The notes: generated by a model not told the origin, from the sequence alone. A stretch of DNA of 64,000 nucleotides from a virus (IMGVR_UViG_3300042471_000650:1-64000), one strand, 5' to 3'. Counted from the stretch's first letter, positions 12,795-27,228 are shown. Program-made: numbers and translations.

Positions 12795-13604
12795 TCAAGG
12801 GGTCTGCGCTTGAGAGGGGTGAGTAATTCTTCCCAAAAACGGATCATAATTCATCAAATCGTCAATCTTCATATCGTGACCCTGCTGCTCCCAGAATTGC
12901 AGAAGTCCATCGTGACTTGCTCTGTGGAAAACATCAATGTGCTCTGGATGAATTGAAGACCCTAATTCAATTCGATAAAGAAAAATAGGAATCGAATATG
13001 TATTTCCAGAGTTGTAAACCAAATCATCAGCAACTGCTCTTGGTTTTACACCATTATCAAGTTTATACTTATCATCACGAACGTGAAACTTAAGAAGTTT
13101 TTCTGCGTGATGACGAGTAATCATATATGCGGCAGTAGAGAAATCATTGACAAATCTCTTGTGCAACTTAACGTGCAAATCTCCAGTGCAGATAATTGCA
13201 AGTTGCACTACATCCCAATCGTAAGGAATCTTGGAGACAAAATCTGCCCAAGTAAAATCCCAAAATCTTGCAAGTTGAATATCAACATCATCTTCCATAA
13301 TGATTGCATATGGAGAATCAGAAGTTTCATACCAATGTTTAATTGCTTTTAGGTGAGAAGTTGTGCAACCAATCTCCCCAGAAGTCATCGTGTCTGGATA
13401 TCTACCTTTAATGATATCTCCCAAATCATCATCACGACCATCATAAGCAGAGATACGAGTATAATTCTCAATCTCCCAATACTTAAATTGGTCTTCCATA
13501 TATTGCTTTCTTTCTGGTTGACCATCTAAATTCAAGTAATAGATTGGTCCAATATTTTTAAGTTTATATGCTGATTTGTTTTTGTCCATCACATTCTCAT
13601 CCAT
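12795..13604 (-). CDS. Glycosyltransferase family 25
   Basis: YYLNLD..PER, GEIGCTTSH and IMEDDV motifs. Confidence 0.85.
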   Translation of the reverse strand: MDENVMDKNKSAYKLKNIGPIYYLNLDGQPERKQYMEDQFKYWEIENYTRISAYDGRDDDLGDIIKGRYPDTMTSGEIGCTTSHLKAIKHWYETSDSPYAIIMEDDVDIQLARFWDFTWADFVSKIPYDWDVVQLAIICTGDLHVKLHKRFVNDFSTAAYMITRHHAEKLLKFHVRDDKYKLDNGVKPRAVADDLVYNSGNTYSIPIFLYRIELGSSIHPEHIDVFHRASHDGLLQFWEQQGHDMKIDDLMNYDPFLGRITHPSQAQTP

Positions 13605-14395
13605 CTTTCTGGAATTAAATCTTTAGTGTTTTTATCTTTACAGGTTTCCCCAAACCAATTTATAGGTGCAACGACGTGGTTAGAATTAGACAACCAAGCA
13701 CCCCACCAGGAGAATGAGGAATTAGCAATAATATGATGTTTGCAGAGAGACATTAGACATAGGTCAACATACTGGTCTCCAGATTCAGAAAGCATAAACC
13801 TCTCATCAGAGAAGATTTCCTGCTCCCTGCACCACTCAATATCATCAGAAAAGATAATGACTGGAAGATTCGAATCAAACTGTTGAAGTGCTGTTTGATA
13901 ATACTCCAAGTCAAGAGCAGTGTGATTTGGATTTTGAAGGTAGTCTGTGCGACGAATATGAAGACTGATTGCTTCTCCGACAGACCCCATCATTTCTTTA
14001 CAAGGTTCTAGAATCTCATCCTTGAAAGAAAAGTCAATCCGAATCTCATCTGTAATATGTGCAAAATATTTTTCTGACTGAAAAAATCCAGCAAGAGTAA
14101 TTTCATCTGGACACATATTGAAGAGAATCTCATCAAAGTGAAAATGCCTTTCTTCTGCTACTGGAGCATATCCCCTATCAAGAAGTTTAATGTTATGAGG
14201 AAGGACATACGACATCTTAAATGGATAGAAGATTTCAATCTTCAAATCAAATCCATAAGGGTCCTTAACAACTTGACTATGATTTGGAACGCAAAAATCG
14301 TATCCTCTATTAGAAGCAATACCTCTCAAAGAGGCATACTGAAACATTTGATTTCCTAATCTGCCCAGTCTACCAAGATGATTAAACGCCAGCAT
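13589..14395 (-). CDS. Alpha-1,2-fucosyltransferase (GT11)
   Basis: GRLGNQMFQYA, HIRRTDY, FSDD and NSSFSWWGAWL motifs. Confidence 0.88.
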   Translation of the reverse strand: MLAFNHLGRLGRLGNQMFQYASLRGIASNRGYDFCVPNHSQVVKDPYGFDLKIEIFYPFKMSYVLPHNIKLLDRGYAPVAEERHFHFDEILFNMCPDEITLAGFFQSEKYFAHITDEIRIDFSFKDEILEPCKEMMGSVGEAISLHIRRTDYLQNPNHTALDLEYYQTALQQFDSNLPVIIFSDDIEWCREQEIFSDERFMLSESGDQYVDLCLMSLCKHHIIANSSFSWWGAWLSNSNHVVAPINWFGETCKDKNTKDLIPERWMRM

Positions 14396-15209
14396 TCAGT
14401 TGTCTCCTTCTTTCTTTAACATAATTTTGGTCTTCATAGTATCTTATTATAGCATCTTTATCCAATGTTCGGATTACCTGCCAAAGATTATGATTGTCCA
14501 TAAACTTTGGATTGTGATAGTGTGAGTTGAAAGTCCGAGAGTGGTCAAAATGATAAACCATATCATTTACTCTTCCTACATTATATCCAAGTGCTTGCAG
14601 GCGATAATAATATTCACAGTCTTCAGCACCCCAAGAGATGAAGTTTTCATTCCACATATAAGAGTCAATATAAACTTGACGCTTAATCATTTGACCCCAA
14701 CCCATTACAGAAGGTTGCAGTTTACAATTTGGTTGCAAAACAGATAGGTTAAATTCAGATGAAATAAAAGCATCAAAAAGAGAAATGGGATAATCAACTG
14801 CCCATTGATAAACTCCACAACCATATGGATAGACTGCATCAAATCCACCTTGAGTAATCATATTATAAGCAGTGGTATAACTTGATACTGGGTAGACAAC
14901 ATCAACATCGTAATTATAAACTACCTCTGTCTTTGCTGCAAGAAGTAGGTCATTCAAAATACGTGTCTTGTAGAAGAATTTATCTTCAGATTGTTCAAAG
15001 ATGTGATAGAGATTTGACGGAATATCTCCAACAATTCTTTCAATAACGGGAAGTGCCTTATCTTGAAAAACAGATTGCCTATCATTCTCCTTGACAATAA
15101 TAGGAGATTGTGGGAAATGGTGCGTGATATAACTGATTGAAGTGATAATGTTTTTCAGTCGGTCTTCACTTTCAATTCGACAAGGCATTAAGAATGTAAG
15201 ATTATTCAT
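14382..15209 (-). CDS. GT-A glycosyltransferase (GT2/GT7C-like)
   Basis: YDVDV and WNENFISWGAEDCE motifs. Confidence 0.75.
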   Translation of the reverse strand: MNNLTFLMPCRIESEDRLKNIITSISYITHHFPQSPIIVKENDRQSVFQDKALPVIERIVGDIPSNLYHIFEQSEDKFFYKTRILNDLLLAAKTEVVYNYDVDVVYPVSSYTTAYNMITQGGFDAVYPYGCGVYQWAVDYPISLFDAFISSEFNLSVLQPNCKLQPSVMGWGQMIKRQVYIDSYMWNENFISWGAEDCEYYYRLQALGYNVGRVNDMVYHFDHSRTFNSHYHNPKFMDNHNLWQVIRTLDKDAIIRYYEDQNYVKERRRQLNAGV

Positions 15210-16053
15210 AACTTACCTCCACCCATCTCTCTGGCAGAAGGTCTTCCATATTGTAATGATCATACATCGACCCAAACCAAGGATTAGGTGCAACAATCGG
15301 TTGTGTAGGATTCTCAATCAACCAGGCACCCCACCAACTCATTGTGCTGTTGGCAATAACACCACCATTACACAGAGACATCATACACAAATCAAAGTAA
15401 GGAATCAATGCCTGTTGACGACCTTGAAGTGTATCACAAGTTTGTGGATACTTTTCAGTATATTCCGAAAGCATAAACCTGTCATCTTGAAACAATTCTT
15501 GCTCTCCACACCACTCAATATCATCAGAGAATACAAGCACTGTAGAATTTTCATCAAAGTGAGTCAGTGCCTTCTCATAATACTCAATAGGACAAGCAGG
15601 GTGTGCCTCTGGTTTGACCAGATAATCTCCCCTCCTTACGTGAAGGAAAATAGGATTCTCAATCTCGTCGATGATTTCTTTACAAGGTTCTAGAATATCA
15701 TCTTTGAATGTGTAATCTTTACGAATAACATCTTCTACATTCAGAAAGTATTTTTCGGAGGTAAAGTAATCGTGAAGATTTACATTGTCAGGACACTCAT
15801 CAAAAAACTTTTGAATGAAATGAAACTCTCCAGTAGAGACACTAGGAGAATTTAAGATTCCAAAATTACTCTCTTGGACTGATTCCATTTTGAAACAATC
15901 AAAGAGACCATAGTTGGAATCTCCATAACTATCTGGACGAGGAATCAACCAATCAAATCCTCGATTTGCAGCAATGCCACGAAGAGCAGCATACTGAAAC
16001 ATCTGATTGCCCAGGCGCCCATTAGAACCTAGTCGATTATAACTGATTGTCAT
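15202..16053 (-). CDS. Alpha-1,2-fucosyltransferase (GT11), second copy
   Basis: GRLGNQMFQYA, HVRRGDY and NSTMSWWGAWL motifs. Confidence 0.88.
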   Translation of the reverse strand: MTISYNRLGSNGRLGNQMFQYAALRGIAANRGFDWLIPRPDSYGDSNYGLFDCFKMESVQESNFGILNSPSVSTGEFHFIQKFFDECPDNVNLHDYFTSEKYFLNVEDVIRKDYTFKDDILEPCKEIIDEIENPIFLHVRRGDYLVKPEAHPACPIEYYEKALTHFDENSTVLVFSDDIEWCGEQELFQDDRFMLSEYTEKYPQTCDTLQGRQQALIPYFDLCMMSLCNGGVIANSTMSWWGAWLIENPTQPIVAPNPWFGSMYDHYNMEDLLPERWVEVSYE

Positions 16054-16054
16054 T

Positions 16055-16672
16055 TCACTTCCTCACATAAAGAGCATCTCCCCAGAGAGTTCCTGCCCAA
16101 TCAGTTTCAACTCTTTCCATACTGTAGTCAGCAAGAAATACATCCAAATCTTCTACAAAAGCATTTCCTTCATAAAGTTCATCACGATTGATTTCACAAT
16201 AAACATAATCAACGTGCTTCATTGTTTCAGCACCACCCTTCAAAACTTCAAGTTCATATCCTTGAACATCCATATTGATGAAATTAAAGTTTTGGGTTTC
16301 ATCTGCAAAACTATCCAGACGCTTCATTTCAACTTCTTCTGTTCCAGGAAATCCAACACCAGGATGCAATTGAAGATGAACTTTGGGACGCAACACAGAA
16401 CTGCTAATCAAATCATTGTCACTCAAATACATTGTGACATTCTTTTCTTCATTGCCAAGAGCAACCTGATAAGCAGAGATATTGGCATTTACATCCTGCA
16501 TTCGCTTCTCAAGAATATTAAAGTTTAAACTCACAGGTTCAAACATAATAATATCTTGGACACCATTATCAACATATTCTTCAATCTCTTGTCCTCGATG
16601 AGCACCAATATGGATGATACCTTTGATATCCATATTGTATTTTTTCACCATACTGGTAAAACTTAAAATCAT
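16055..16672 (-). CDS. FkbM-family SAM methyltransferase
   Basis: HIGAHRG, FEP and MDVQGYELEVLKG motifs. Confidence 0.88.
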   Translation of the reverse strand: MILSFTSMVKKYNMDIKGIIHIGAHRGQEIEEYVDNGVQDIIMFEPVSLNFNILEKRMQDVNANISAYQVALGNEEKNVTMYLSDNDLISSSVLRPKVHLQLHPGVGFPGTEEVEMKRLDSFADETQNFNFINMDVQGYELEVLKGGAETMKHVDYVYCEINRDELYEGNAFVEDLDVFLADYSMERVETDWAGTLWGDALYVRK

Positions 16673-17490
16673 AATTCTTGTAGATAAGTTTTGTAAATGT
16701 AGTCTTCGTTGATGGGATAATTTTTAACTCTTTCCAGATTATCCTTGACTGCTTCCAGTTTATCATAATAAAGGTCTGAAGTCAATTGAGAAACATCAAA
16801 GTCATCAGTTAAGAAAATAATACCATCAGGATTAAAAAACTTTCCAATATCTGGAGACCCATAATAAACTGGAATTGTCCCAGTGGCAAAGCAGTCTTGA
16901 ATCTTTTCGGTGAAATAAGTCTCATAACAGGCATTCTCAATTGCAACCGAAAACATATAGTCTGCTAGACCTTCTTCTTTCGATTGAATCTCATTGAAAC
17001 CACGACCATAGAAATCAACTTTGCCCTGAAGTTTTTGTGCCCAAGACAAACGATGTTGATGCCCCTCACACATTAACTTGTTGGAGCAAATCATTGAAAC
17101 TAATTTACTCTTTTCATAGAGTTGTGGTTCAGTAATCCAACTCCCATACAAAGGAGCAAATTTAAATTTGGGATGCAGTTTAATTAATTCTTGATGATGC
17201 GTAAAAATAGCATCATAAACTCTCACATAGTGAAGATAATTTCTTTTTACATCTTCCAAAACATCAGGACAGATGTTTGCAGACTCCAATAACCAAGCGT
17301 ATTTTTTCTTACTTGTATCATCGTCAAATGCTAATCCAATGTATCGGTCCACATAGAAGGTTTCCTCTGCTCCAGAATCTACCCACTCTATAAACTTGGA
17401 CTCTTGTTTATGAATGGAAGATGCTTTGTTTCCATTATCATAATTGTTGAATCCGCCGCCGACCAAATTATACGGTTTTTTCGCAGTCAT
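16669..17490 (-). CDS. GT10-like fucosyltransferase
   Basis: YMFSVAIEN...YFTEKI.DCF..GTIPVYYG motif. Confidence 0.8.
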   Translation of the reverse strand: MTAKKPYNLVGGGFNNYDNGNKASSIHKQESKFIEWVDSGAEETFYVDRYIGLAFDDDTSKKKYAWLLESANICPDVLEDVKRNYLHYVRVYDAIFTHHQELIKLHPKFKFAPLYGSWITEPQLYEKSKLVSMICSNKLMCEGHQHRLSWAQKLQGKVDFYGRGFNEIQSKEEGLADYMFSVAIENACYETYFTEKIQDCFATGTIPVYYGSPDIGKFFNPDGIIFLTDDFDVSQLTSDLYYDKLEAVKDNLERVKNYPINEDYIYKTYLQEL

Positions 17491-17514
17491 ATATAATAAA
17501 GATTTTATAATAGT

Positions 17515-18198
17515 ATGAAAAAAGTCATTTCCTTTTCATTATACGGTGATAATCCGAAATATACAATCGGAGCAATCAAAAATTCAGAATTAAAAGAAAC
17601 TTATTTTCCTGGTTGGGAAATGAGAGTCTATCATAATGACTCTGTTCCTAACTATGTATTAGAGCAATTAGAAGCAAATAATGTAGTTTTAATCAATACT
17701 GGAGTAGACCAGGGTTTCTGTAATGCAATGTGGAGATTTGCTCCAGCATCAGAAAAGGTAGAATGCTTTATTTCTAGAGATTGTGATTCCCGTTTATTTG
17801 AAAGAGATGCTGTAGCAGTCAATGAATGGTTAGAATCTGGCAAGTGTTTTCATATCATTCGTGACCATCCTGGCGGACACGCTTGGGAAATCAGTGCTGG
17901 TATGTGGGGAGCAAGAGGATGTTTTGTGGAAAACATTCAAGATAAAATTAACGAATATATTCAAACAAGTTCTTGGGTGAATGACAGAGCAGTAGATCAA
18001 AGATTCCTACAAGAAATAATTTATCCAAGAGCTTGTGAAAGTCTTTTTCTCCACGATGAATACTTTAATTATGAAGGTATTGGAACTGCAATTAAAAGAA
18101 ACCGCCAATTAGATGACTTTGCTTTTATTGGAGAACCATTTGATGAAAATGATAATCAATTATCAAATCATCGTGATATGATTATTCAAAGATACTGA
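17515..18198 (+). CDS. Putative glycosyltransferase-like protein, inverted within the island
   Basis: ISFSLYG, ISRDCDSR, IRDHP and DQRFL motifs. Confidence 0.6.
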   Translation: MKKVISFSLYGDNPKYTIGAIKNSELKETYFPGWEMRVYHNDSVPNYVLEQLEANNVVLINTGVDQGFCNAMWRFAPASEKVECFISRDCDSRLFERDAVAVNEWLESGKCFHIIRDHPGGHAWEISAGMWGARGCFVENIQDKINEYIQTSSWVNDRAVDQRFLQEIIYPRACESLFLHDEYFNYEGIGTAIKRNRQLDDFAFIGEPFDENDNQLSNHRDMIIQRY

Positions 18199-18893
18199 AG
18201 ACATTCTGGAAGAATTTTTCTTTGGTATAAACCCATATTGTGCTGATAGATTGCGTGGTCTTTTGGATGAGACGTTGCAACTTTACTAGCAGGTAGAGAG
18301 CAGACTTTGATATGCCTTAAGTCTTTAACCTTATATCCAAACTGGTAGGCACGATAAGACATATCTCCATCGGCACAGTAATATTCATATTCTGGATTAT
18401 ACATTCCAATCTCTTTAAAGATTTTCTTTCGATACAATCCATAATTCATCACAATTTCCCCACCAGAATCTGCAATATTACACAGACACCATCCGTCACT
18501 ATGGTCTCTACCCTTTAACCATTCTGGGTTTTTTGTATCTTCATAAGTCCCATACTTCCAATTGAAAAGATAGAAGTCGTGATTTGATTGAAGTTCTAGA
18601 AATACTTCAGACCACTCATTACATAAAATTACATCATCATTCCATTGGCAAATAACATCGTATGTTGCTGCTTGAATGCCCAGATTCATAAAGTGTGGAT
18701 ATGAACTACGACCACCAACTTCAATTAGTTTAATCTGTGGGTGATTAAGTTTTTGAATATAATCAATCGTGCCATCATTGCTTCCACCATCAACAAGCAC
18801 AAGTTCTAATCTTTCATCAGATAAAACCGTATTTGCAATGAGTGCAGGAAGCATACCTACACGATTTAAGGTTCCAGTTACAATACTAATCAT
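18186..18893 (-). CDS. Glycosyltransferase family 2
   Basis: VDGGSNDGT, WNDD and ADGD motifs. Confidence 0.82.
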   Translation of the reverse strand: MISIVTGTLNRVGMLPALIANTVLSDERLELVLVDGGSNDGTIDYIQKLNHPQIKLIEVGGRSSYPHFMNLGIQAATYDVICQWNDDVILCNEWSEVFLELQSNHDFYLFNWKYGTYEDTKNPEWLKGRDHSDGWCLCNIADSGGEIVMNYGLYRKKIFKEIGMYNPEYEYYCADGDMSYRAYQFGYKVKDLRHIKVCSLPASKVATSHPKDHAIYQHNMGLYQRKILPECLQYL

Positions 18894-19570
18894 TAGTTTA
18901 TCTCAATAAAAGGATTAAGACCAGAGGAGTTCATTGACTCATCATATTGCCTTACGTAGTTATGCTGATACAGTTTGGGTTTATCTAACTTGTAGGAGCA
19001 CATTAACTCTTTGAAAGAAGACTGCATAAAATGAATCTCTTCTGCATTTTCAATCAGAGTAATATAATCAAAAACATTGAATCTCTTATCATTCATAATC
19101 ACTTTGTATTCAGTTTCAATTCGATTCATATCGATTGAGAATCCACGAGAGGCATCATCGTGTACAAAAATATATCTCTCACCAGTTGGATTCAGAGTAT
19201 TCAATACTTCTTTCTCCTTTCCCAAATCCCGTTCAAAGTAAAACTCATCAAACCTAACTGAAAAATCTAATCCGGCAAGTTTATAGAATGCCTTATCGAA
19301 TGGAAATTCTGGCATTACTCCAGACAAATCACCAAATCCAATCTTTAAGCAATCCAACTTTTGATTTGAAATATAATAGTCTGCTTGAGCATCGCTTTCC
19401 ACTCCAAGAACTTGAAACTTCTCTAGGTCACGATACATATACTGCACATTTTTTACATTATGATTGTATGCAAATAGTGTAATTGCACCATATTCCTTGT
19501 AAAAATGTCTAACCATACCATTATTAATGATATGGTCACCTAGTCCCAAATGATGATAGATATATTTCAT
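18893..19570 (-). CDS. Putative GT-B-type glycosyltransferase
   Basis: HHLGLGDHII N-terminal motif; island context. Confidence 0.5.
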   Translation of the reverse strand: MKYIYHHLGLGDHIINNGMVRHFYKEYGAITLFAYNHNVKNVQYMYRDLEKFQVLGVESDAQADYYISNQKLDCLKIGFGDLSGVMPEFPFDKAFYKLAGLDFSVRFDEFYFERDLGKEKEVLNTLNPTGERYIFVHDDASRGFSIDMNRIETEYKVIMNDKRFNVFDYITLIENAEEIHFMQSSFKELMCSYKLDKPKLYQHNYVRQYDESMNSSGLNPFIEIN

Positions 19571-20337
19571 TAATTTAAATTAAGAATTGTTTGATGATGA
19601 TTTGCCCCCATAATCAATGCTAGGAGACTGACATTCGAAAAACTATACAAAAAGTGACTACAACTTGAAAGAATAAAAACGCTCGATAATACTTCTTCAT
19701 TGATTATATCTCTATTGGGTAAATTATGCAATGGAGCATTATCTGAACTAATATGAATTGTATCGTCATATACGACTACATTTCCATATCTTTCTTTGAT
19801 AGGATTTAGATACTTAATATCATCTGTTGCCAAAAAGATATTTTGTATGTCCACCATATCAAAGTATCTGTCAATTTTTTGAATAATATTATCTATACTT
19901 GGTTCAGGTATCTCATTTTTCTTATCTGTGCCTCTAATTTGAATCCCAAGTGTTTTATCAGTAATTCCTAAATCGGCAAACTTCTTTTCAAATAGTTTTC
20001 TTTTATCGTCTTTAATCTTAAGAATACTATCAAACACTTTATTCTTCAATTTTAAATTTTCTACATTAGCAATTGTATGTGCAGTGTAGTCAGAATGATG
20101 CAATTGATTCTGAAAAAATCTATCTAACCACCAAGACCCCGCATCATATTCATCATCACCATCCTCATAGACATTATCAAAGAGTTTAAGAGTTTGTGAT
20201 TCAAAAACAGAGCAGTTTAAGTTTTCATAGACACAATAATGCTCCAATGCAATATCAATAATTGCACATACGATGGAGCAGAATCCTTTGTATGAATAAT
20301 TGAATCTAGGGTCTTGAAGAGTTATGCAGGCATTCAT
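19570..20337 (-). CDS. NodZ/GT23-like fucosyltransferase
   Basis: GIQIRGTDK, IFLATDD and SNVS motifs. Confidence 0.7.
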   Translation of the reverse strand: MNACITLQDPRFNYSYKGFCSIVCAIIDIALEHYCVYENLNCSVFESQTLKLFDNVYEDGDDEYDAGSWWLDRFFQNQLHHSDYTAHTIANVENLKLKNKVFDSILKIKDDKRKLFEKKFADLGITDKTLGIQIRGTDKKNEIPEPSIDNIIQKIDRYFDMVDIQNIFLATDDIKYLNPIKERYGNVVVYDDTIHISSDNAPLHNLPNRDIINEEVLSSVFILSSCSHFLYSFSNVSLLALIMGANHHQTILNLN

Positions 20338-20675
20338 AGTCCAGTGTCTCTATCTAAATTATAAGCATATGCAGTTTTAAGACCGCTTGGTTTTTTATCG
20401 TTGAATAATATCCTTTCACCTATAGGCAAATCATAAATGATATGGTCAAATCTAATATTATTTTCTTTAAGAAACTTTTCAGTAATTTCTTTATACTCTA
20501 AAGACCTTGCAGTTAGAATAACAATTTTATCATCCTTTGAAATCTTTGAGAAAAAATCCTTCACACCAGGAAGCAATTCTTCACCGGCATTCTTATAACC
20601 ATTATGTTTGACTAATGTCCCATCCATATCAAACAACCAGGTTTTATTTAAATTAGAGTAATTGCTTCCGTCCAT
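20334..20675 (-). CDS. Minimal HAD-family phosphatase
   Basis: FDMDGTL, LTAR and ND motifs. Confidence 0.8.
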   Translation of the reverse strand: MDGSNYSNLNKTWLFDMDGTLVKHNGYKNAGEELLPGVKDFFSKISKDDKIVILTARSLEYKEITEKFLKENNIRFDHIIYDLPIGERILFNDKKPSGLKTAYAYNLDRDTGL

Positions 20676-22171
20676 AACTCACATCCTTTATAAAATGAAT
20701 ACAAAACCGCATCAATATCTTCCTTTACATAACCAGATAAAGAAAACCAAATACCAGCGTGGAGTAAAATCATTTCAACTTTGGTCATTCTTGACCTCTG
20801 AATAATATACTCACCAAACTGCTCATACCCATTGGATTCAATATCCAATTTGATACCATTGCTCATATCTACACTAAACTTTTTAGAATTAATTTTATCA
20901 TAGTTTCCCACTGCAGAATAATAAAGTTTTGCCCAATCATATCTGGGGTCTCCGTAGATTTTATTTCCCCCAAAAGTTCCTCTGGGGTCAATAAACCAAA
21001 CTTGATTCTTGTCATCGACCAGAGTGTTACTAAAAGTGCAGTCACCGTGAATAACCGTATAATGAAGATTCTTGAGAAGATTATTTTCCATAATCTCTTC
21101 AAAACTTCTCATATCACAAAAAGGATTCCTACAAGACTTACGATTGATTTGAATTACTGGTTTAGAGAAGTCTTCTATAATATGCCTAACCTGCATCACT
21201 CTCTGATAAGGTTTAAACATATAGGTATCGGCACAATCATAATCATTATTTGGAGCACATTCATTAATTGAATGTAATTCTTGAAGTGCATTACAATAAT
21301 TTTCAATTATCCAATCCTTACCTTGCTTTATATCCCAAGCGTGTTTTCCTTCCACTTTAGACATAATTAAAGGTTCTGTGGAATAAATCTTTGGTATTCT
21401 TTGAAAATCATTCTTTACATAGGCATACCATTCTTTTTCTGCCTGATGAACTTTATCATACTTTGAGTCAATACATCTTTTATAGACTTTATCATCTTCT
21501 ATTTTAACTTCATTAAAGAATCGATGATTGACTGATTTATTCAATAATTCCTCATACTTATCCACAGTTCCAACCTCAAAGCAATCATGATTTGTAAAGG
21601 ATGATATCTCATAAGGCATATAAGTATCAGATAAAAATCCTCTCACCAATGACTTATCAGTTTTTAAATTTTCAAATCTTTGCTTATTTTTAAAAGCAAA
21701 AAATCCAGATACTCCCTTTTCTTGAGAAGGAATGTTTTTAAAGACTCCATTCTCTAATGACCACCGACAATCAAAATTGCCTGCAAGTCCCACAAGCATT
21801 TCATTGTCAAACTCAAACTCCTGCTCCCGTTCAAAGAACAAATCAGACCAGGTGATAATAAATGGTTCTCCATCAGGAACATTTTGAAGTGCTGATTGAA
21901 TACCTGCAGCAGTGCCCTCTTCTTCAGTCTGCATAAGAATATAATTATCAAAATTACTAATCTCACAAATATAATGCAAAAGCATTTTAAAGTGAGTATC
22001 GCCAATAATAATGACAGTTTTGTCTCTGTATGTTTCCAAAGTCTGCTCAATCATTGGTTTACCATAAACTGGCACCAAACACTTTGGGCGATTCATCGTA
22101 TATTTGCCCAGACGAGTGCCTTTACCACCCGCCTGGACAATTACATACTTAATATCTTTATGAGTAATCAT
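20648..22171 (-). CDS. Fused sugar nucleotidyltransferase and APH/choline-kinase-like phosphotransferase
   Basis: N-terminal QAGGKGTRL..PKCL and WSD; C-terminal HGDCTFSN, IDPRG and GDPRYDWAK. Confidence 0.82.
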   Translation of the reverse strand: MITHKDIKYVIVQAGGKGTRLGKYTMNRPKCLVPVYGKPMIEQTLETYRDKTVIIIGDTHFKMLLHYICEISNFDNYILMQTEEEGTAAGIQSALQNVPDGEPFIITWSDLFFEREQEFEFDNEMLVGLAGNFDCRWSLENGVFKNIPSQEKGVSGFFAFKNKQRFENLKTDKSLVRGFLSDTYMPYEISSFTNHDCFEVGTVDKYEELLNKSVNHRFFNEVKIEDDKVYKRCIDSKYDKVHQAEKEWYAYVKNDFQRIPKIYSTEPLIMSKVEGKHAWDIKQGKDWIIENYCNALQELHSINECAPNNDYDCADTYMFKPYQRVMQVRHIIEDFSKPVIQINRKSCRNPFCDMRSFEEIMENNLLKNLHYTVIHGDCTFSNTLVDDKNQVWFIDPRGTFGGNKIYGDPRYDWAKLYYSAVGNYDKINSKKFSVDMSNGIKLDIESNGYEQFGEYIIQRSRMTKVEMILLHAGIWFSLSGYVKEDIDAVLYSFYKGCELWTEAITLI

Positions 22172-22743
22172 ACAACTGTCTTTCCAATACTACCACCTGG
22201 ATGATTTTGCACAAACTGTTTGAGTGTAAGATTTTTTCTTCTTGATATTTCACAAGCAACAGATTGAAGAAAAATTGTAAATATCGCAATTGAAGAAGTT
22301 GGCACAATATTCAAGTGGTCTGCTTCTTTATCGACGTGCAAGTTAATATCAAGAGATGAATATTTTTGAGATTGATTACCATTATTAGAGTGAATGGATA
22401 CAATCTTACAGTTTTTATGACTTACGTGATGTAAAAAATTAACCAGTTCATCAGTGTTTCCACTTTTTGATACTGCGATTAAAAGGTCATTCTCATCAAT
22501 TACCCCCATATCACCGTGAACACTATCAACAGCATCAATAAAAAAACAAGGGACTCCGATTGAAGATATTGTAGATGTTGCTTTAGCAGCAACGTGACCG
22601 TTCTTTCCAATACCTGTAAAGAGTATTTTGCCCTTACAATTCATAATAAGGTCTATCATCTTCTCTACATTTTCATCCTCAAGATGCTCATAAGAAGTCT
22701 GAATTGATTCAATATGAGATTTATAAAAGTCCCTTACCGACAT
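22168..22743 (-). CDS. SIS-domain arabinose-5-phosphate isomerase (KdsD/KpsF-like, no CBS domains)
   Basis: TGIGKNG, HGDMG, SKSGNTDEL, PTSS and HPGGSIG motifs. Confidence 0.85.
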   Translation of the reverse strand: MSVRDFYKSHIESIQTSYEHLEDENVEKMIDLIMNCKGKILFTGIGKNGHVAAKATSTISSIGVPCFFIDAVDSVHGDMGVIDENDLLIAVSKSGNTDELVNFLHHVSHKNCKIVSIHSNNGNQSQKYSSLDINLHVDKEADHLNIVPTSSIAIFTIFLQSVACEISRRKNLTLKQFVQNHPGGSIGKTVV

Positions 22744-23681
22744 TCTTTATACCAATGATAAGTTGACTCAATACCTTCACGAAGTCCAATCTTTGGTTGC
22801 CATCCAAGTGCTTTAATCTTATCTACATTCAAAACTTTGCGAGGAGTGCCATTTGGTTTAGTTGTATCCCAATTAATATCACGAGCGTATCCAACAACAT
22901 CAGCAATCATTTCTGCAAGTTGTTTGATTGTTACATCTTCACCAGTCCCAACATTGATGTGCTCTGCTTCTTCATATTTTTGCATACAAACATAACACGC
23001 TTCTGCAAGGTCATCGACGTGCAGAAACTCCCTCATTGCCGACCCATCTCCCCACAATTTAACTTCATAATGCTCACTATGCTGAAGAGCACCGTGAAAC
23101 TTGGCAATCAGTGCTGGAAAAACGTGGGATGTCTCTAGATTAAAATTATCATTAGGACCATAAAGATTTGTAGGCATCAACGAAATTGCATTGAAACCAT
23201 ACTGTTGACGATATGCCTGGCACATCATAATTCCAGCAATCTTTGCAATCGCATATGCATCATTCGTTGGTTCCAGAGGACCAGTCATTAGTTGGTCTTC
23301 TGTGATTGGTTGCATTGCAAACTTGGGATAAATGCAGGATGAACCAAGAAACAGAAGTTTCTTCACACCAAAATTATAAGACTGTTGAATGATATTAGTT
23401 TGAATTTGAAGATTCTCTGTAAGAAAATCTGCCTTATAGTTATTGTTTGCCATAATGCCACCAACTTTGGCAGCAGCAAGAAAAACATATTCAGGTTCTT
23501 CTGAAGAAAAATATCTTTCTACTTCTTCTTGATTTGTAAAGTCTACATCTTGACGAGTGCCTTTGATGATATTTGTATAACCTTTGCTCTCAAGATTTCT
23601 AACGATTGCTGACCCAACCATCCCATTGGCGCCAGCAACTAATACTCTAGAATTATTGTCCATAAATGCACATATCCTCAA
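22734..23681 (-). CDS. fcl: GDP-L-fucose synthase
   Basis: [28 protein letters not shown] and [10 protein letters not shown] motifs. Confidence 0.95.
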
Positions 23682-24654
23682 TCAATTGGTCAAATGTAAT
23701 TTTAGGTTCCCATCCTAATTGTGTTTTTGCCTTCGTGGCATCCCCCAATAAGGTTTCTACTTCAGCGGGTCGAAAATATTTAGGATTGACCTTAATAACC
23801 TCTTTTCCGGTAAAAACATCATATCCAATCTCATCCAAACCCTCACCCCTCCAGGTAATTTGCATTCCAAAGTAAAGTGCTGCTTTTTCAACAAACTCAC
23901 GCACAGAGTATTGTTCTCCAGTAGCAATCACATAATCTTCTGGAGTTTCCTGCTGCAGCATCAACCACATTGCTTCAGCGTAATCTTTTGCGTGACCCCA
24001 GTCTCTTTTAGCATTTAGATTACCAAGATATAAACAATCTTGAAGTCCTACTGAAATTTTTGATAATCCTTGAGTTATTTTTCTAGTAACAAACGTCTCA
24101 CCCCTGCGAGGAGATTCGTGATTAAAAAGAATTCCTGTGCAGGCATACATTCCGTATGCTTCACGATAGTTTTTAGTAATCCAGTAGGCATAGAGTTTTG
24201 CTACACCATATGGAGATCTTGGATAGAATGGAGTGGTTTCTTTTTGGGGAATCTCCTGCACAAGACCATACAATTCACTTGTAGATGCTTGATAGATTCT
24301 TACTTTATCTTCCATACCCAGAAGACGCACTGCTTCTAGAATACGAAGAGTGCCAACACCATCAACATCAGCAGTATATTCAGGCATTTCAAAGGATACC
24401 TTCACGTGACTTTGGGCACCCAGATTGTAAATCTCATTGGGTTGAACCTGCTGAATGACTCTTACCAGATTTGTAGAATCAGTAAGATCCCCATAATACA
24501 ACTTAATCCTGTTGTAAATATGGTCGATTCTTTGAGTGTTAATTTGAGATGCACGACGAATAATGCCGTGAACTTCATATCCCTTTTCTAAAAGTAATTC
24601 TGCAAGATAAGAACCATCTTGTCCTGTAATGCCAGTAATTAATGCTTTTTTCAT
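23653..24654 (-). CDS. gmd: GDP-mannose 4,6-dehydratase
   Basis: [26 protein letters not shown] and [15 protein letters not shown] motifs. Confidence 0.96.
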
Positions 24655-25481
24655 ACTTCACAATTTGTAAAATCTATTTGACCATTTCTGGTTGCCCAGA
24701 TTGGATACTCTTTACCATAAGTATTCCAAACATTTGCTTGTGCGTGACCAACCGGAATACCGGTCATTCCAGTAGCATTCCAAATTGTTTCATAGGTGTC
24801 ATCCTCGTGAAAAGTAAAGTCGTGAGATTCTGCCTGCTGTTTCAAAAGCAAAGACAAGATAGATTGGTCGTGCCTATTTTCTATAAAAATGGAATCATTA
24901 GATAGACTTGAACGACTATCATCTAAATACTTTCCACCATCCTCAACACAAATATCCATCCATTTCCTAACCAACTCTCTCATCATAAGAGTATTCTTGA
25001 GAAAGAAGATACCAGAAATAATTTGCCGAGTCATCAGATATTCATCATTATCTCCAAGTATATGGCGATATGTGTCCATCTTCGTCCATTGAATCTCTGG
25101 TAGGTCTAGTGTAAAAAATACACCTTCAGTCTCTACACATTCCTGATAATATTGCTGAAGTTTCTCTAATCCATTCTTATTCAACTCACAACCAGAATCC
25201 ACATAAAGAAGAACCTCATTTTCAGGAATACTTTCAAGTGCTTTTAAAACAAAGTAAGGTTTACAAGCGTAATACCCATAATATCGTCCAGGCATTCCTA
25301 AACGAGGTGCCATCATTGGTTTGGCGTATTCTTCCCAGAATGCATTGTTTTCTAAATCAGATTCTCCAAATTCCAGAATAGAATCAAATACTTCAAAATT
25401 TTCTGCTTGTTTTTTAATTCTACTTTTACCTATAGAGAAATTTTCATCTCCAAAGTAAGTTAAATGCAACTTCATACACAC
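24651..25481 (-). CDS. Putative GT-A glycosyltransferase
   Basis: KP..., YVDSG and RHDQSILS motifs. Confidence 0.55.
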
Positions 25482-25535: not shown

Positions 25536-25564
25536 TTAGTATATAACGGAGTTGCGCTTCTCCA

Positions 25565-25662
25565 GGTTGCTCGCCACTTGCCCTTTGACTGGAGGCAAGA
25601 AACCAGGCGGGGTTTCCCCATCCGCACCACTTACTTTTTAATGGGAAAGCAAGAAACCAAAT
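25565..25662 (-). ncRNA. wcaG-like RNA motif
   Basis: Two hairpins each followed by UGGYG (GUGGUGCGG, GUGGCGAGC) with a GGGG-aaa-CCCC stem between them; upstream of the gmd/fcl operon. Family assignment from recall. Confidence 0.65.
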
Positions 25663-27156: not shown

Positions 27157-27228
27157 TCCAGAAGGTTGGGATCGAACCAACGTCTTCACCGCCCCAAACG
27201 GTGCCGTCTACCGCTGACTTACTCCTGG
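27157..27228 (-). tRNA. tRNA-Pro(UGG)
   Basis: Cloverleaf; anticodon arm CACCG-TT-TGG-GG-CGGTG; TTCGAT T-loop; own TTGACA-N17-TATAAT promoter. Confidence 0.9.

Follow-up and report, generated by a model that had tools for sequence, protein, structure and literature searches.

Which activated sugar is made by a three-gene cassette of a virus related to freshwater cyanophages, and onto which acceptor is this sugar transferred? The cassette lies at positions 20334-22743 of a 64,000-nucleotide stretch of viral DNA (IMGVR_UViG_3300042471_000650:1-64000; hereafter the window), which belongs to a 78 kb virus record of IMG/VR with an estimated completeness of 32%; at the locus, the DNA is 84.5% identical to that of Synechococcus phage S-SRM01, a freshwater cyanomyovirus with a complete genome of 240.8 kb. 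A preliminary description made from the sequence of the window had proposed that a KdsD-like arabinose-5-phosphate isomerase, a nucleotidyltransferase fused to an APH-like kinase and a HAD phosphatase form a pathway to a nucleoside diphosphate (NDP)-D-arabinose. According to the comparative analyses presented here, the trio is probably a glycan-serving NDP-D-arabinofuranose module of the cellular type, the product of which would be incorporated into a fucosylated glycan and probably not into DNA.

The three enzymes of the cassette

The open reading frame (ORF) list, Pfam and NCBIfam agree on the three overlapping genes of the preliminary description, all encoded on the minus strand: a KdsD/GutQ-like, SIS-only isomerase (22168-22743; 191 aa), a nucleotidyltransferase/APH-kinase fusion (20648-22171; 507 aa) and a small cap-less HAD phosphatase (20334-20675; 113 aa). 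Isomerase and fusion overlap by 4 nt, fusion and phosphatase by 28 nt; the trio also overlaps with its outer neighbours (isomerase with fcl, 10 nt; phosphatase with a GT23-like gene, 4 nt) and is therefore translationally coupled. In comparison with S-SRM01, the ratio of nonsynonymous to synonymous substitution rates (dN/dS) amounted to 0.05-0.10 across the trio (isomerase 0.05, fusion 0.07); all three cassette genes are under strong purifying selection.

The isomerase contains a Pfam SIS domain (E 4.5e-20) and no CBS domains. Among the NCBIfam models, KdsD (E 2.4e-32), GutQ (4e-32) and KpsF (5.4e-31) outperformed all other SIS families, with E-values some 20 orders of magnitude lower; GmhA reached just 2e-5, its models giving 22-24 bits at cut-offs of 209-276. 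The protein was assigned to phrog_5670 ("arabinose 5-phosphate isomerase", 8e-42), a family common to the RB69 gp55-type enzymes, and is 31% identical to PhAPEC2 gp047 (E 8e-29). Its sequence matches in the Protein Data Bank (PDB) comprise 5uqi (5e-28), 3etn (3e-23) and 2xhz (6e-19), the best of them including arabinose-5-phosphate isomerase entries; the GxGK(S/N)G, HGD(L/M)G, KEAD and HPGG stretches align with 5uqi and 3fxa, and a KpsF/GutQ-type SIS domain with conserved active-site stretches is present. In its overall architecture the enzyme resembles the SIS-only phage proteins (phrog_5670) and the PDB entries 3etn/5uqi and is unlike canonical KdsD. The product of 22168-22743 is predicted to be a D-arabinose-5-phosphate isomerase.

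The fusion combines an N-terminal NTP_transferase domain (residues 11-115; 2.9e-13) and a C-terminal APH-fold kinase domain (residues 244-418; 1.9e-6) in one polypeptide, i.e. the two-domain architecture of the AfhE type. It was assigned to phrog_4098 (1.9e-56, residues 8-503) and aligns end-to-end with PhAPEC2 gp045 (26% identity, E 1e-35, residues 7-504) as well as with the AfhE locus of coliphage HY126 (26.3% identity, E 6e-31, 99% coverage). An alignment covering the Straboviridae clade, environmental phages, bacteria and cyanobacteria revealed 48 invariant columns, among them G16, R20, K30 and D110 of the transferase (G-x-G-x-R motif) and K231, E245, H375-G-D377, N382 and D395 of the kinase (HGDxxFSN and IDPRG motifs). 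The PDB sequence search yielded no full-length relative; the matches of the N-terminal domain include MurU (4y7t) and LicC (1jyk), the latter restricted to the N-terminal 47 residues (4e-5). No choline-kinase family was present among the Pfam matches, the kinase half being covered by APH and a sub-threshold match to TCAD9 only. On the basis of these alignments, the fusion is a homologue of AfhE and RB69 gp52:53; activity towards D-arabinose 5-phosphate (Ara5P) and use of UTP would be expected by analogy with AfhE.

The phosphatase showed weak matches to HAD families (NIF 6e-5; HAD-IIIA 1.9e-5), but it retains the DxD, T and D catalytic motifs in intact form; D16, D18, T55, R57 and D93 do not vary among the window protein, AfhF and the cellular homologues. 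It was assigned to phrog_1238 (4.5e-8), to which the RB69 gp51-like PhAPEC2 gp044 also belongs (1e-42). As the pairwise BLAST comparison with gp044 gave no alignment, homology to gp51/AfhF exists at the profile level only (common PHROG and motifs). The enzyme is predicted to be the counterpart of AfhF and RB69 gp51, i.e. a 5-phosphatase of arabinofuranose (Araf)-1,5-bisphosphate.

Comparison with the RB69-type pathway and other nucleotide sugar systems

The RB69-type cassette was first flagged in PMC6024577, according to which SIS and transferase are present in one protein in Butyrivibrio. The part of PMC13326640 (NAR 2026) that summarises the work on RB69, DLP3 and HY126 describes the isomerisation of ribulose 5-phosphate (Ru5P) to Araf-5-phosphate, AfhE of coliphage HY126 as an Ara5P kinase that is also a UDP-D-arabinose pyrophosphorylase, and AfhF as a phosphatase dependent on Mg2+ that turns Araf-1,5-bisphosphate into Araf-1-phosphate (both citing He et al., Nat Chem Biol 2026); UDP-arabinofuranose is then transferred onto 5-hydroxycytosine in DNA. 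The route that the preliminary description had deduced for the window (Ru5P via Ara5P, Ara-1,5-bisphosphate and Ara-1-phosphate to NDP-arabinose) is the one reported in this summary for the homologous cassette. The comparison with RB69-type arabinosylation genes, likewise suggested there, placed the window trio and the PhAPEC2 proteins (annotated as similar to RB69 ORF055c, ORF052c+053c and ORF051c) in the same three PHROGs, phrog_5670, phrog_4098 and phrog_1238, and the gene order isomerase/fusion/phosphatase is common to both.

The window trio therewith shares families, order, fused architecture and catalytic residues with the Afh/RB69-type systems (RB69 gp55, gp52:53 and gp51; HY126 isomerase, AfhE and AfhF; DLP3 gp83-81), and the same chemistry starting from Ru5P is predicted. 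In contrast, sequence identity is just 16-31%, and the two clades are parted by a very long branch; the Straboviridae fusion enzymes carry a C-terminal extension of about 55 aa and their phosphatases an insertion of about 12 residues, both of which are lacking in the window proteins. Whereas the Afh/RB69-type cassette is located in the replication module, that of the window resides in a glycan island without the 5-hydroxy-dCMP synthase, the TMK-like kinase and the DNA arabinosyltransferase of the Afh system.

Following this analogy, the SIS enzyme would convert host ribulose 5-phosphate to D-arabinose 5-phosphate, the C-terminal APH-like kinase would phosphorylate C1 to yield Araf-1,5-bisphosphate, the small HAD phosphatase would take off the 5-phosphate, and the N-terminal nucleotidyltransferase would join Araf-1-phosphate to a nucleoside triphosphate (presumed to be UTP as for AfhE). 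Downstream of a wcaG RNA leader, the module would be co-transcribed with the genes for GDP-L-fucose synthesis, some ten glycosyltransferases and one methyltransferase; during infection, its product would enter a fucose- and arabinofuranose-containing, partly methylated glycan on virion proteins or the host envelope. From the pathway chemistry we infer a furanose ring: with O5 phosphorylated, arabinose closes only as furanose, and the anomeric phosphate then locks the ring. A UGM-type mutase was found neither in the window's record nor in S-SRM01 nor in a complete 231 kb relative with the same island. In consequence, the suggestion of the preliminary description that D-arabinopyranose could act as a mimic of L-fucose, with fucosyltransferase-like neighbours serving as arabinosyltransferases, loses its basis.

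Its comparison with the nucleotide-heptose pathways (GmhA, HldE/HddA, GmhB, HddC), on the other hand, holds for the four-step logic: an isomerase, an anomeric kinase acting on a sugar phosphate, a HAD phosphatase removing the distal phosphate and a nucleotidyltransferase. The families differ, however, since the isomerase scored about 24 bits with GmhA versus 112 with KdsD and is not of the GmhA type; the HldE and HddA kinases use folds other than the APH-fold of the window enzyme. The same pairing of APH-fold kinase and nucleotidyltransferase folds is found in AmgK/MurU and LicA/LicC; to our knowledge, these phosphorylate a free sugar or choline and have no linked isomerase and phosphatase in a heptose-like arrangement. 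Virus glycan islands with GDP-fucose genes are exemplified by the wcaG-RNA-associated sugar genes of cyanophages and by chlorovirus capsid glycosylation; such islands likewise comprise gmd/fcl, many glycosyltransferases and a methyltransferase, with the wcaG RNA at the head of the island in the window. No description of an NDP-D-arabinofuranose module in islands of this kind was found in the literature searched, and the cassette genes go undiscussed in the S-SRM01 paper.

Distribution and phylogeny of the cassette

Among 50,697 phage records, S-SRM01 was the sole close match of the fusion (89% identity, two records); a further 362 matching records were less than 60% identical (22-30% for those listed) and mostly represented T4-like phages (Straboviridae) of enterobacteria and Acinetobacter. 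The family is large beyond these: 3009 relatives at E <= 1e-5 were present in the metagenomic protein collection, 74 fusion loci in IMG/VR and at least 458 cellular matches with 34-41% identity in GTDB (one genome per bacterial or archaeal species), the holders including Trichodesmium, Prochloron, Gastranaerophilales, many Lachnospiraceae and Oscillospiraceae, and archaea. Gene neighbourhoods were compared in 75 viral sources (74 fetched loci and the window) and 80 fetched cellular loci. The phosphatase gene was linked to the fusion in 63 of the viral sources and 66 of the cellular loci, and the window phosphatase is 46-63% identical to its cellular homologues. A SIS gene accompanied the fusion, often directly downstream, in 57 cellular loci and 32 viral sources as judged from family clustering (34 of the 74 by tblastn); linkage or adjacency of both genes extends over bacteria and archaea as well as phages. 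Many Firmicutes have the SIS gene directly after the fusion gene, and at least one homologue, P0109 (682 aa), unites SIS and transferase domains in a single protein. Outside phages, the closest relatives are the trios of cellular, not viral, genomes with their adjacent SIS gene. DNA-modification genes were found in none of the 80 cellular loci, and the two that were inspected (Robertmurraya and Trichodesmium) are of glycoconjugate type: the former contains MptE/Maf-like, methyltransferase, acetyltransferase and SDR genes, the position beside the MptE/Maf-like gene hinting at flagellin or surface-protein glycosylation, and the latter GT61, ABC transporter, full-length SIS+CBS, O-methyltransferase and sulfotransferase genes.

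In a quick maximum-likelihood tree, which was midpoint-rooted and does not give the direction of transfer, the four Straboviridae enzymes were separated from all 55 other rows by a branch of 4.19 substitutions per site (support 100); Enterococcus phage 9183 was placed, unreliably, on a very long branch. The window enzyme was one of 11 members of a clade (support 100) made up of related viral contigs, S-SRM01 and the 231 kb record with psbA/psbD among them. In the same tree, the window fusion falls with cellular and environmental sequences and not with the Straboviridae AfhE clade (~26% identity).

Roughly one half of the viral loci fetched, T4-like contigs for the most part, possess fusion and phosphatase but no nearby SIS gene; these may depend on host KdsD or act on a different substrate. 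A second, large viral group (within L020-L076) contains fusion and phosphatase, in several cases with gp32- and UvsX-like genes nearby, and many of its loci are without a SIS gene within 10 kb. A family of about 241 aa without Pfam match was encountered in 42 loci of this group, usually directly upstream of the fusion (e.g. L020:4395-5150 and L044:1406-2131), and other unannotated families recur as well. A contig labelled as a Rickettsia typhi metagenome-assembled genome (L091), a label that looks like a binning error, likewise contains fusion and phosphatase, together with an fcl-like gene that shares 56% identity with that of the phage.

Acceptor molecule and alternative interpretations

Five DNA-modifying phages were inspected for comparison (PhAPEC2, HY126, Acinetobacter phage Berthold, Shewanella phage Thanatos-1 and Enterococcus phage 9183): a ThyA-like gene is contiguous with the cassette in all of them, and the four Straboviridae additionally have a thymidylate-kinase-like gene and putative DNA glycosyltransferases at the cassette, within the replication module. 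The window's record, S-SRM01 and the complete 231 kb cyanophage gave no match to the ThyA family (PF00303), nor did four further large viral records; as a positive control, the same search retrieved both ThyA-family genes of PhAPEC2 (its genuine thymidylate synthase and the homologue of the 5-hydroxy-dCMP synthase). S-SRM01 has ThyX as its only thymidylate synthase, and the 231 kb genome, which bears psbA/psbD, contains the whole island at 55-80% protein identity. A homologue of the RB69-type DNA arabinosyltransferase was detected by tblastn in none of the 74 viral loci, and a ThyA-like gene within 10 kb of the cassette in one of them, L055, the most divergent locus retaining gmd/fcl (IMG/VR 3300034104_005609). 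This ThyA-family gene (PF00303, 215 bits) is situated about 9 kb upstream of the cassette in the same 51 kb record. The whole Afh DNA system, i.e. a linked ThyA-like synthase and DNA arabinosyltransferases, was not found in the ~32% of the window's genome that has been recovered; a search for PF12851 (TET/JBP) gave no match but is uninformative, its controls being matchless too.

That the phage hypermodifies its own DNA in the way of RB69, HY126 and DLP3, on an acceptor base supplied by unrecognised genes, is in the light of these data quite improbable. All experimentally studied uses of the cassette are DNA arabinosylation, the window genome is incomplete, and the second environmental T4-like group has fusion and phosphatase near replication genes; nevertheless, the ThyA family is absent from two complete genomes with a functioning control, the arabinosyltransferase is missing throughout the viral loci, the cassette is part of a fucose/glycosyltransferase operon outside the replication module, and the window enzyme groups with the cellular-type clade. 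Of the acceptors named in the preliminary description (virion, host lipopolysaccharide or DNA), DNA has thus become the least likely, and virion and envelope remain as candidates: the acceptor is likely a glycan on either of these and not DNA. A different objection concerns the sugar itself. Isomerisation to another aldose phosphate, and hence activation of an NDP-sugar other than arabinose, would be compatible with the low identity to assayed enzymes, with the sub-cut-off scores of the isomerase for KdsD and GutQ and with the lack of a SIS gene in about half of the viral loci, where the 241-aa family often occurs instead; this is regarded as unlikely, given the lead of the KdsD/GutQ/KpsF models over other SIS families, the arabinose-5-phosphate isomerases among the best PDB matches and the association of SIS and fusion genes across bacteria, archaea and phages, whereas the SIS-less loci can use host KdsD. 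Very little probability is assigned to an isomerase that only boosts host synthesis of 3-deoxy-D-manno-octulosonic acid (Kdo) for the lipopolysaccharide core, with fusion and phosphatase acting, LicA/LicC-like, on an unrelated small molecule, for instance choline. The LicC-like N-terminus of the fusion and the occurrence of choline kinases among the APH-fold kinases would fit such a role, but a search of the 78 kb record, of S-SRM01 and of the 231 kb relative detected neither KdsA (PF00793) nor KdsB (PF02348), the absence of which from the window had already been noted in the preliminary description. Moreover, the fusion combines no kinase of a choline-kinase family with a LicC-type cytidylyltransferase, the trio is coupled and co-inherited as a unit, and the full-length homologue of the fusion is, in the summary of PMC13326640, an Ara5P kinase/pyrophosphorylase. 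Two of the outcomes that the preliminary description had named as refuting its pathway, a LicA/LicC-like kinase and an isomerase feeding Kdo synthesis, therefore find nothing in their favour in the fusion and in the phage records, respectively.

The reading as a glycan-serving NDP-D-arabinofuranose module is itself weakened by several observations. Identity to characterised enzymes is low (fusion about 26%, isomerase 31%, phosphatase 16%), so that substrate and nucleotide specificity could differ, and no biochemical characterisation of any enzyme of the cellular-type clade was found in the literature searched. The isomerase lacks the tandem C-terminal CBS domains and equivalog-level scores of the canonical enzymes (112 bits versus 505 for KdsD and 481 for GutQ), and 3fxa of Listeria, a SIS-only relative, was reported to be a glucose-6-phosphate isomerase. 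With about 32% of the window genome recovered, the absence of a DNA-acceptor pathway rests on the relatives. Finally, no arabinofuranosyltransferase is assignable in the island, and the latter has no priming transferase, flippase or polymerase, which leaves the route to the envelope unexplained.

Significance of the cyanophage cassette

As the pathway itself is already published for the arabinosylation of coliphage DNA, the cassette alone is no discovery; the new elements are its context in a cyanophage glycan island and the large uncharacterised cellular clade. The chances are about even that the cellular-type trio represents a widespread, hitherto uncharacterised NDP-D-arabinofuranose route for glycoconjugates in hundreds of lineages of bacteria and archaea, independent of the mycobacterial decaprenyl-phosphate route, which was captured together with GDP-fucose genes by cyanophages for a methylated D-Araf/fucose glycan on the virion or the infected cell surface. 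If so, this would be the first non-DNA use of an NDP-D-arabinofuranose pathway by a virus. From the comparison, the DNA-modifying version emerges as a divergent side branch of a far larger family, which is spread over cellular glycan loci and environmental phages and of which no member has been assayed in the literature searched; cyanophages deploy it in a hypervariable, wcaG-RNA-headed island beside GDP-fucose synthesis. Confirmation, for which a cultured test system exists in S-SRM01 and its Synechococcus host, would add D-arabinofuranose to the sugars that phages place on virions or host envelopes and would give a simple rule by which thousands of genes could be annotated that now go under the labels "GlmU-like", "aminoglycoside phosphotransferase" or "polynucleotide kinase 3' phosphatase".

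The glycan island surrounding the cassette

The cassette is located inside an island of about 13 kb (12795-25481), which is encoded on the minus strand except for one gene. Directly upstream of the isomerase lies fcl (22734-23681; NCBIfam GDP-L-fucose synthase, 2.7e-141), preceded in the same operon by gmd (23653-24654; NCBIfam gmd, 6.7e-172); in front of gmd lies the first ORF of the island (24651-25481; 276 aa), which gave no match in Pfam, NCBIfam or PHROG and has no family assigned, yet is kept with the island in related viral contigs. The leader, about 80 nt upstream of this ORF, contains a wcaG RNA motif on the minus strand (25563-25661; Rfam RF01761, 91.2 bits at a gathering threshold of 42, E 1.6e-16) that covers the full-length model.

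Beyond the cassette, the island comprises about ten glycosyltransferases; three of its ORFs are unannotated. By Pfam, the minus strand of the block downstream of the cassette (12795-20337) encodes a GT25 (12795-13604), a GT11 (13589-14395), a GT2/GT7C-like protein (14382-15209), a second GT11 (15202-16053), an FkbM methyltransferase (16055-16672), a GT10-like protein (16669-17490), a GT2 (18186-18893) and the GT23/NodZ-like protein (19570-20337) that adjoins the phosphatase. Two further ORFs gave no match in Pfam, NCBIfam or PHROG. For 18893-19570 (minus strand), the AlphaFold model (pLDDT 82.7) found its best Foldseek matches among GT9 heptosyltransferases (3tov, E 1.3e-4; TibC; WaaF), indicative of a compact GT9-like GT-B fold. 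The plus-strand ORF 17515-18198, the AlphaFold model of which was poor (pLDDT 52), is a probable GT-A protein with SFSLxG and RDCDSR (DxD-like) motifs; its atlas neighbours are viral "glycosyltransferase" clusters, its relatives lying in protein clusters of giant viruses and phages, which can be taken as a lead only.

No glycosyltransferase strictly co-varies with the cassette in the cyanophage-type clade (L014, L015 and L017 combine the trio with other transferases), so that none has been assigned as arabinofuranosyltransferase. Homologues of 17515-18198 and 18893-19570 flank the trio in L055 and are, besides gmd, fcl and the 24651-25481 ORF, the sole island genes recurring there; they constitute the only lead for arabinofuranosyl transfer, other clade members being devoid of them.

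The phage lineage together with its island is common in freshwater lakes: DNA near-identical to the segment 19570-24654 (60-82% of sampled words) was observed in 18 lake-water metagenome runs other than the two possible source samples. Upstream of the island, a tRNA gene is positioned amid small ORFs on the minus strand (27157-27228; Rfam RF00005, 51 bits).

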